A DNA stretch of 36,600 nucleotides from a virus (lineage: Duplodnaviria > Heunggongvirae > Uroviricota > Caudoviricetes), in IMG/VR virus record IMGVR_UViG_2639762844_000004, one strand, 5' to 3'. Made by a program: the position numbers. Shown one piece after another: positions 1 to 3,000 of the stretch (its first letter is position 1; each line of letters begins with the position of its first letter).

Positions 1-3000
1 TATAATAAACTTACTTTTTTATCATTTTTCCACTTTAACAACATTTTGCTCCACTTTTCCACGATCAAACAACTTGAAATCTGGTTAAAATAACACGCAA
101 CACTATTCTTCTTCCTTGAGTCCGCCCGGAACTCGAAAAACAAACCGAGTTAAAGCCATTTTTCACAAAATCGATTTTGGGTCTCACCAAAATTACGGGG
201 TTGCATACGCATTCGTTTATTTTCGAACGTGTACATACAAATATGCACAAAAATAATCAAAATTATTTTCTGAGATGCATTATGATATGAACACCAATTT
301 CGTATAGAGTCTCACTATGTCTCGAATTTTTGCTTACTGTCGGATATCAACGCTGGATCAGACCATCGAAAATCAACGCCGGGAAATCGAAAGTGCAGGT
401 TTTAAAATCAAACCTCAGCAAATAATCGAAGAACACATTAGCGGCTCAGCAGCAACCAGTGAGCGTCCTGGTTTTAACCGGTTGCTTGCTCGCCTGAAAT
501 GTGGTGATCAATTGATTGTGACAAAACTGGATCGCCTTGGTTGTAATGCAATGGATATCAGGAAAACAGTGGAACAACTGACCGAAACAGGTATCAGAGT
601 GCATTGCTTAGCATTGGGGGGCATTGACCTGACCAGTCCAACAGGAAAAATGATGATGCACGTAATTTCAGCAGTCGCTGAATTTGAACGAGACCTTTTA
701 CTTGAACGCACTCATTCCGGGATAGTAAGAGCCCGCGGCGCAGGGAAACGTTTTGGTCGACCACCTGTGTTAAATGAAGAACAGAAACAGGTGGTATTCG
801 AACGAATTAAGTCAGGTGTAAGTATAAGTGCCATTGCCCGGGAATTCAAAACCTCGCGGCAAACCATTTTAAGAGCCAAAGCAAAACTTCAGACACCTGA
901 CATATAAAAAATAATCTCGGTGTGAGATGCTTTACGTCTTCCAAGCCCCCTTCCTTGCCGTAAATGGAAAGATACATCTAATTATAGAATTTATATGTTT
1001 TACCCTACGGCAGTGCTGGCCATTCAATATCCTGTGCAGTTGACGTATCAACACGGTTCAGCAACACCCGATACTTTTTCCAGGCTTCCAGCAATGAGGT
1101 TTCTTCCTCCGTTGCGATTTCCAGATCTACAGCATCCTGAAGTGGCGCAATATGCTCACTGGCTACCTGCATCAGGCTGTTTTTTGTTTCTTCCGCCTCT
1201 CGGATCCGGAACAGTTTTTCTGCTTCTGCATCTTTCACCCAGGCTGTGCCGTTCCACTTCTGAAACTCCCCTTCCGGCGATAACTAGGTAACATTTTCCG
1301 GTAACGGACCGAGTTCAGAAATAAATAACGCGTCCCCTGACGCTACGTCATAAACCGTTTTACCCCGATGGTCTTCAACGAGATGCCACGATGCCTTATC
1401 ACTGTTGAAAACAGCCACAAAGCCAGCAGGAATATCTGGTGGTGCAATATCGGTACTGTTTGCTGGCAGACCTGTATGAGGCGGAATATATGCGTCACCT
1501 TCACCAATAAATTCATTAGTTCCGGCCAGCAGATTATAAATTTTTATGGTCCGTGGTTGTTCACTCATTCTGAATGCCATTATGCAAGCCTCACAATATA
1601 GTTAAATGCGATGTTTTTGACGGTGTTTTCCGCGTTACCAGCAGCGTTAACGGTGATGGTGTGTCCATGTGAACCAATCGCAACGGAGTGCGTATGAGCA
1701 CCAATACCGACAGTATGCGCGTGTGCACCTGCAGATGCTGCTGTGCCGGACAGTGAATGGCTATGATTACCATCTGTACTGGTATTCGCTAACCACCCCG
1801 TAGACATACCTACTGAGCCTTGTACACCCCAGGTATTTTGACCTGAGCTTGTATAACCATATTGATAAGTATCTTTAAAAACACTGGGGTTAAATCGACG
1901 GCCATCTCTATGGCTGTGATTACCAGCTGCATTCGTGCTGCCACTTAAACTATGGGTATGCGCACCAGTGTTATTCGTGGATTTAGTGCCGTAATCAAAC
2001 GACGATGTGGTTTTCGTCCCCAAATCCGTACTGGATGCGCTGGCGCTGTGGGTATGCGATTTAATGCCGTCCTGTTCCTGAGACAATACGGCCCGACCAC
2101 TGGCAGGTTTGCCCTTAATCGTCCAGCCACGCATATCAGGGATCACGCCTGACGGATAAGCGGCTGCAAGTTTCGGGTATGCAGATTTGTCAAAAGTCTG
2201 CCCCTGCATCAGGGCATAGCCAGACGGAACGGTATCTGATGGCCACGGGATTGGTGCGCCAGGCGGATAAAACTGCTCTGATGGCGTATAGAGTGAATAA
2301 ACTGTACCGTCCGTTAACCCTTCCGGCTTATTAGCAGAATATGCTGGTGACGTATGAATCGTCACGCTGGCATTACTGGTATAATCCCATTGAATATTTA
2401 CACCAGTCGCATAATTTCCGATTGCAACGTAAATATCGTAAGTATCACCAGATGTATTGACCCAGGCAAAATTTGTAAACCCTGTCGATGTGCGCTGCCA
2501 TAAAGCACCAGTAATCCCCTTCGGATTACCATTACCTGCACGTAAAACAAGTTCAGATATACCTGCCTGTTGAGGTGACCCCACGTTAAATCCAGCGCCA
2601 CCAATCAACGTAATTGAAACAACAGAACTCGCCTGTGGCATGGTTACCGTTGCTAATTTGAACCAACCAGCACCACCGCTGAATGACATTGTTGTTGAGT
2701 TAAGCGTACCAATATCTTTCGGCGTCAGTGTTATATCCGCTGAAAGCGCCTTACCATTCACCTTACGGGCAGAAGGTACCCGACCATTCGCATTGTCATT
2801 AGCTGCTTTCACTGCTTTCGGTGTCGCAGCAAGCGTTTCAGATGTGCTGTTGGTTGCACTACTGAGCTGGACAATTCCTTTTTGTGCTGTCGTAGCGTCC
2901 TGTGCGGTGTATTTCCCGTTAGCCAGGTCATACGCGGCCTTAACGGCTTTTGGCGTTGCCGCCTGTGACTCGGAAGTGCTGTTAGTCGCACTGCTGAGCT

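Follow-up and report, generated by a model that had tools for sequence, protein, structure and literature searches.

Probable recent nonsense mutation in tfa, the gene for tail fiber assembly, of a lambdoid Escherichia coli prophage at the DLP12 site

Tail fiber assembly proteins of the Caudo_TAP family (PF02413), such as Tfa of bacteriophage lambda and TfaQ and TfaR of Escherichia coli K-12, are encoded directly after stf (the gene of the side tail fiber), whose stop codon overlaps the tfa start codon. The tfa gene of IMGVR_UViG_2639762844_000004, a virus record of 36,600 nucleotides analyzed here as a whole and called the window, is collinear with these genes and has the same position and overlap. 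Its residue numbering is identical to that of lambda Tfa to codon 99, and it shares the same C-terminal helical region; a 585-column nucleotide alignment with lambda tfa contains 47 differing columns, the last ones mostly at the divergent 3′ end. Unlike lambda tfa, however, the window gene has TAG rather than TGG at codon 99, and therefore specifies the first 98 residues only. We consider it highly probable (about 0.88) that a genuine and recent nonsense mutation has made a pseudogene of tfa in this lambdoid E. coli prophage, which resides at the DLP12 site.

The prophage of the window occupies the same chromosomal site as DLP12 of E. coli K-12, and homologues of quuD, rusA, essD, rrrD and nohD are common to both. 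DLP12 of K-12 has lost most of its late region, whereas the late region of the window copy is still complete for head and tail, stf, tfa and pin included. Loss of side fibers by a single lesion has a precedent in lambda PaPa, where one frameshift mutation in stf reportedly abolishes the side fibers and leaves the other tail genes intact (Hendrix and Duda 1992; PMC7291167, PMC3945230). The lesion in the window differs in that it affects the chaperone gene, is a substitution and not a frameshift, and is found in a prophage that is no longer able to grow. A precedent for the base change is provided by lacI, where the amber hot spots of the classic study lie at the second C of CCAGG, and a G:C-to-A:T change there creates UAG (Coulondre et al. 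1978; PMC12606429). Ambers of this very type are already known among the tfa pseudogenes that RefSeq labels with an internal stop, with the same Trp99 lesion flagged in strains CU37RT-2, GN02050 and GN06667 and a Trp114 amber in GDSC2227PM, and in this respect the finding is ordinary. These RefSeq pseudogenes differ from the one described here in belonging to other prophages or loci, and the window's own allele lies outside the complete-genome set.

Translation of positions 1580 to 1005 on the minus strand yields a single frame of 191 codons and a stop codon, with one internal stop directly after ...LGPLPENVT. On the plus strand the stop reads cta (1284..1286), which gives TAG on the coding strand, and the frame beyond it stays open and conserved. 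The listing of open reading frames (ORFs) divides the gene into a 98-amino acid ORF at 1284..1580 and a 77-amino acid ORF with a GTG start. The tfa of the window is a pseudogene of the lambda Tfa/TfaQ family, and not a working member of it. The features that concern the gene are as follows.

1005..1580, minus strand: tfa, tail fiber assembly pseudogene, 191 codons plus stop, interrupted at codon 99.
1284..1286, minus strand: in-frame amber TAG in place of TGG (Trp99), from translation and allele comparison.
1284..1288, plus strand: mutated Dcm site, reading CTAGG here but CCAGG where tfa is intact; its inner cytosine, the methylated one, is position 1285.
1287..1580, minus strand: N-terminal 98-codon ORF of tfa, without its stop codon, the variable fiber-binding part (Pfam PF28596 Caudo_TAP_N on the identical product).
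1005..1238, minus strand: C-terminal 77-codon ORF of tfa, with a GTG start that is codon 115, the conserved helical part (from the ORF listing).

A preliminary description of this DNA had reported that the tfa frame is open save for one TAG at 1284..1286, as the translation bears out. It had also given Trp as the lambda Tfa residue at this position, and had proposed that a single TGG-to-TAG change is responsible. Codon 99 is indeed Trp in lambda Tfa by alignment, and the nearest intact alleles differ from the window gene by exactly the coding-strand G-to-A change that was proposed. The same description placed stf downstream of tfa, which holds in plus-strand coordinates only; in transcription stf lies upstream.

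To place the lesion among known alleles, we compared positions 950-1650 of the window (701 bp) with 5,426 complete E. coli genomes. The query matches 5,243 of these, with the best matches 99.9% identical and none 100%, and the search gives a median of three tfa-like places per genome. Over this interval E. coli E2865 differs from the window solely at position 1285 (C in E2865, T in the window), and the same single base separates the window from dozens of E. coli prophage copies. Phage PhiR42_1 also has C at 1285, with one further difference from the window at 1638. The nearest complete genome is that of JNE170426, for which position 1285 is the sole difference over window positions 1-2260, while over 1-30554 there are five substitutions (amber included) and one 1-bp indel. 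E2865 and JNE170426 share an intact 191-amino acid allele, WP_000885616.1 (RefSeq name tfaQ), that is one base away from the window tfa.

The amber version of this sequence is rare. A 61-mer with TAG at codon 99 (TAG99) occurs exactly in 4 of the 3,448 complete genomes that match this stretch. No viral contig contains a 22-mer with TAG99, compared with at least 120 that contain the TGG version, and TAG99 is absent from GTDB species representatives and from all 16 sequenced phages that match the stretch; the 22-mer is present in one metagenome contig. Judging from this rarity and from the near-identity with JNE170426, the amber appears to be young relative to the prophage lineage.

The same base recurs in independent data sets, and it is accordingly very unlikely, as far as assembled sequences can tell, that the amber reflects a sequencing error rather than a genuine change. 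NCBI contig NMMX01000033.1 (GCA_002467205.1) is 100% identical to window positions 1-11580 and encodes a 98-amino acid product followed by a true TAG; it probably represents the source of the window or a clone of that source. Over 1.6-1.8 kb, TAG included, the window is matched at 100% identity by the Logan assemblies of two SRA runs, SRR25004981 and SRR31598696, and two metagenome contigs have TAG on backgrounds that depart slightly from it (17 and 11 differences). TAG is also found within a 61-mer identical to the window in four complete genomes, those of CU37RT-2, GN02050, GN06667 and GN05476. In the three of these that were inspected, it resides in another tfa allele of 194 codons with 31-32 differences from the window. 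This allele belongs to a separate prophage, adjacent to a remnant of ompW that adjoins the trp operon, and carries the PGAP label “tail fiber assembly protein, internal stop”. Six other contigs found through the 98-amino acid product end 0-2 nucleotides from the variable base and are uninformative on the codon. Four of the six stop exactly before that base. The pattern of the six is in part a selection effect of the look-up; contig ends at a variable base are also the expected behavior of de Bruijn assemblers when both alleles are present in a sample.

The C-to-T change at position 1285 falls on the inner cytosine, the one that Dcm methylates, of a Dcm site (CCWGG): plus-strand positions 1284-1288 read CCAGG in intact alleles and CTAGG in the window. 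The dcm gene is present in most E. coli, and deamination of 5-methylcytosine at this site is the likely source of the amber, provided that the host methylates it. The 5-methylcytosine at 1285 would deaminate to thymine, the resulting T:G mismatch would escape the Vsr very-short-patch repair that normally reverses such mismatches at Dcm sites (PMC2715241), and the Trp99 codon TGG would become amber TAG. The whole window contains 6 CTAG compared with ∼141 expected from base composition, and 3 CTAGG, a scarcity that fits a fresh CTAGG not yet removed by repair bias. The hot-spot ambers of Coulondre et al. in lacI are reportedly coding-strand CAG-to-TAG changes; in the window, unlike in lacI, the template strand bears the methylated C and TGG is the codon affected, and the evidence is comparative and not a measured mutation rate.

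A second background shows the same CCAGG-to-CTAGG context. This base is the one difference over 701 bp between the allele of GN02050 and its TGG parent in strain 7/2. Among the six Trp codons of tfa, codons 99, 114 and 167 are preceded by xCC and overlap a CCTGG Dcm site, whereas codons 65, 109 and 187 do not. Recurrence was tested by searching engineered tfa queries against the 5,426 complete genomes, with the following results.

Trp99 to TAG, Dcm-overlapping: 4 genomes.
Trp114 to TAG, Dcm-overlapping: 1 full-length exact match, GDSC2227PM, annotated “internal stop”.
Trp167 to TAG, Dcm-overlapping: exact 61-mer in 348 complete-genome records.
Trp65 to TAG, non-Dcm: none in complete genomes.
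Trp109 to TAG, non-Dcm: none in complete genomes.
Trp99 to TGA, same-codon control: none in complete genomes.

TAG is thus found at three of three Dcm-overlapping Trp codons and at neither of the two non-Dcm codons tested, in events that are few and partly clonal. For Trp114, an initial 61-mer query on one background gave no full-length exact match, and an engineered 43-mer found GDSC2227PM, where the amber lies in a divergent tfa allele within a degraded prophage remnant beside ybhB/bioA (locus L142, 2197-2766). The Trp167 amber lies in a 153-bp C-terminal remnant of tfa beside the type III secretion effector genes espM2/espW of EHEC-type strains, and was inspected in O157:H7 and O111 genomes (loci L140 and L141, 2464-2616 in each).

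Caudo_TAP, the conserved C-terminal domain, is predicted to lose about three quarters of its length to the stop. When Trp99 is restored, residues 72-191 match Pfam Caudo_TAP with an E-value of 3e-44 and 150.7 bits (gathering cut-off 22.1), and residues 100-191 alone score 131.8 bits (E=2e-38). The sole solved relative is Mu Tfa (PDB 5YVQ_B), with residues 112-174 of which Tfa residues 126-191 align (E=1.4e-9). In Mu Tfa and a cyanophage chaperone, fiber binding is assigned to the variable N-terminal domain, and trimerization and assembly to the conserved C-terminal helices (PMC9608196). Translation would end after 98 residues and leave the variable, fiber-binding part. The intact Stf protein would then be badly folded, except where a suppressor tRNA or some other tfa copy in the host makes up for the missing function.

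The prophage that carries this lesion is already defective, unable to maintain immunity or to replicate alone, because an IS3-family element lies where the immunity and replication region should be. The window begins shortly past ydfK and closes with the last codon of intD, its stop, with the argU tRNA-Arg gene at one end of the prophage and the ompT, envY, ybcH, nfrA side of the DLP12 site at the other. Two features define this part of the element.

35437..36600, plus strand: integrase of the intD type, at the argU end; its stop codon is where the window ends, and a tRNA-Arg gene is next in JNE170426.
30584..31767, minus strand: IS3-family transposase, orfA and orfB (Pfam rve and HTH_Tnp_1; annotation of the 99.9%-identical JNE170426 locus).

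The element is located between rusA/ninX and cIII, in place of N-cI-cro-O-P, and the immunity and replication region would already have been lost through an IS-associated deletion. From nu1 to stf, every head and tail ORF is open and agrees with the intact annotation of JNE170426. The flanks of the IS3-family element are 29921..30283 and about 31755..32009. At the ninX/IS junction (window ∼30554), ∼233 bp are present in JNE170426 (locus L017, 42956-43188) and absent from the window.

Because the prophage is already defective and side fibers are dispensable in lambda (PMC7291167), the loss of tfa probably represents neutral decay of a cryptic prophage gene. Inactivation might instead have been selected, with side-fiber loss being advantageous as in laboratory lambda and the amber being one route to it. 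In structured environments, lambda with side fibers rapidly gives fiber-less mutants (PMC2762979), in soft agar phages grow better once stf/tfa is lost (PMC3945230), and the same amber occurs on more than one background. However, a prophage that lacks immunity and replication genes cannot grow as a phage and so experiences no current phage-level selection, and the mutations in the cited experiment were in stf and none in tfa (PMC2762979). The amber is, moreover, found in very few genomes and in none of the sequenced phages, and the Dcm site would account for its recurrence, such that selection seems improbable. Other explanations concern the stop itself. An error in sequencing or assembly, with TGG as the true base, might be suspected since the 701-bp stretch has no exact match in the complete genomes, since a gene present in several copies per genome invites assembly problems, and since several of the contigs found break at exactly this base. 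Yet the same T is present in the NCBI assembly, in Logan assemblies of two separate SRA runs and in two metagenome assemblies, and the same change occurs on another allele in four finished genomes, leaving very little room for an artefact. Of the two causes offered by the preliminary description, a recent inactivating mutation is upheld by the few differences from JNE170426, whereas a sequencing error conflicts with the repetition of the base in independent assemblies. That description also named a natural end of Tfa at the stop as an outcome that would overturn it, but homologues have one uninterrupted ORF of 191-194 codons. Gene callers do give 98- and 77-amino acid products with separate Pfam matches to Caudo_TAP_N and Caudo_TAP, as would be expected for a two-piece Tfa in which a short gene ends at the stop and the downstream ORF is separate. 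With thousands of uninterrupted homologues, a single-base difference here, and a Caudo_TAP domain (residues 72-191) that is cut by the stop, this arrangement is scarcely credible. The sole in-frame start available to the second piece is the GTG at codon 115, which lies 48 nucleotides past the TAG and has no Shine-Dalgarno-like sequence, and re-initiation there to give a C-terminal fragment is only remotely possible.

It is also conceivable, though quite improbable, that tfa function persists in effect, through read-through by a suppressor tRNA or through masking by an intact resident paralogue. The median of three tfa-like places per E. coli genome and the conservation of Tfa C-terminal domains across phages (PMC9608196) favor this idea, and complementation by another resident tfa is possible. 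On the other hand, the variable N-terminal domain is thought to set fiber specificity, and paralogues may therefore not fit. Judged from the window alone, rescue of the amber appears unlikely, because a tRNA gene is lacking from the window, TAG works as a stop and serves as the terminator of tfa itself, and GTG115 lacks a ribosome-binding sequence. A phage-borne suppressor tRNA was rejected on the ARAGORN result of zero tRNA genes in the window, and no sign of programmed read-through was seen, the stop lacking conservation (4 of 3,448 genomes, none among at least 120 viral contigs and none among 16 phages). The base after the amber UAG is U, a context that, according to Poole et al. in 1995, reportedly gives strong termination. 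The terminator of tfa (1005..1007) is the sole TAG stop among 31 genes checked. As to how the amber came to lie on several backgrounds, a serious but unlikely alternative to repeated deamination at a recurrent hot spot is one origin, with homologous recombination then carrying the amber from prophage to prophage. Three pin-linked backgrounds (the window, L005 and L139) are identical at 1144-1524 and differ outside this interval only, lambdoid phages recombine readily in stf/tfa (PMC3945230), and these three backgrounds could indeed reflect one origin plus recombination. The allele at the ompW locus, in contrast, is identical to the window over only about 96 bp at the site, and its TGG parent is identical to it over 701 bp, which would require a very short conversion tract; ambers at two more Dcm-overlapping Trp codons on unrelated tfa alleles likewise speak against spread from a single source. 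Because this second background has its own TGG parent in strain 7/2, an independent origin is more economical than a conversion tract of <100 bp. A more elaborate possibility is that the Trp99 Dcm site acts as a methylation-dependent, semi-reversible switch of side fibers, turned off by deamination and on by Vsr-driven miscorrection, which is reported to promote CTAGG-to-CCAGG changes (PMC2715241). Such a switch would add to the frameshifts in homonucleotide runs of stf that Gallet et al. proposed (PMC2762979), but nothing specific supports reversibility or selection, and we regard it as highly improbable.

Several points weigh against a recent, Dcm-derived nonsense mutation that inactivates tfa. 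The evidence for T at 1285 consists of assembled sequences and not reads, and the expectation that the 98-residue product should fail as a chaperone is drawn from its domain content. The four genomes with the Trp99 amber are one clone, and the Trp167 amber occurs in a remnant that was already dead and whose spread was probably a single event. In a set of 76 distinct tfa sequences, a sample biased by a selection pattern that fixes site 1, no synonymous C-to-T change was found at the coding-strand inner cytosines of Dcm sites, and hypermutability thus gains no further support there. Finally, a test for spikes in truncation length, in which Tfa prefixes of 64, 90, 98, 108, 113, 120, 150, 166 and 186 amino acids were looked up in a 15-billion-protein collection, was set aside as uninformative, all lengths being present via contig-end fragments. 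Two truncated forms are not flagged as partial: a third 98-amino acid Tfa variant with T43I and K62E (P0008, 7 contigs) and a 109-amino acid Tfa that ends just before Trp114 (P0065, 17 contigs).

For annotators, the point is that the tfa of this record is genuinely a pseudogene, and its stop should not be corrected as an error. Beyond this, the gene adds a clean natural example to a set of ambers at all three Dcm-overlapping Trp codons of a widespread prophage gene, and tfa ambers could serve as markers for 5-methylcytosine mutagenesis and Vsr repair in natural E. coli. Infecting lambdoid phages can acquire stf-tfa segments from defective prophages by recombination (PMC3945230), and a phage that recombines with such a prophage could inherit the tfa defect.

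The genes on either side of tfa are listed below.

1580..4546, minus strand: stf, side tail fiber gene, intact (Pfam phage_tail_N, Phage_fiber_2 and Collar).
317..907, plus strand: pinQ/pinR-type serine invertase, convergent with tfa (196 amino acids; Pfam Resolvase and HTH_7).

As in the invertible tail-fiber segments of Mu (G), P1 (C) and e14 (P), a serine invertase adjoins the fiber genes, but unlike in those segments no inverted crossover sites were found. Neither credible inverted repeats nor a AAACCNNGGTTT-type crossover core was found in window positions 1-5300, and the gap of 97 bp between pin and tfa leaves no room for a second fiber/tfa set. A pin-driven invertible segment was therefore rejected for want of crossover sites, inverted repeats or an alternative fiber set, and pin seems to be an orphan invertase that has nothing to invert. 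The stop codon of stf overlaps the tfa start in TAATG at 1578-1582, and the stf stretch has zero differences from JNE170426. Within stf, at 2838..3146, adjoining stretches of ∼170 bp offset by 132 bp are ∼92% identical, indicating a tandemly repeated motif, and a long Ala/Ser-rich stretch lies upstream of these repeats. The length of Stf varies among close relatives, with values of 986, 1176 and 942 amino acids. Elsewhere in the window, an intact porin gene of 365 amino acids (28028..29125, plus strand) is flanked by the Q antiterminator gene on one side and by the lysis genes on the other; its label and its Pfam Porin_1 assignment come from near-identical relatives, and its position is presumably that of nmpC in DLP12.

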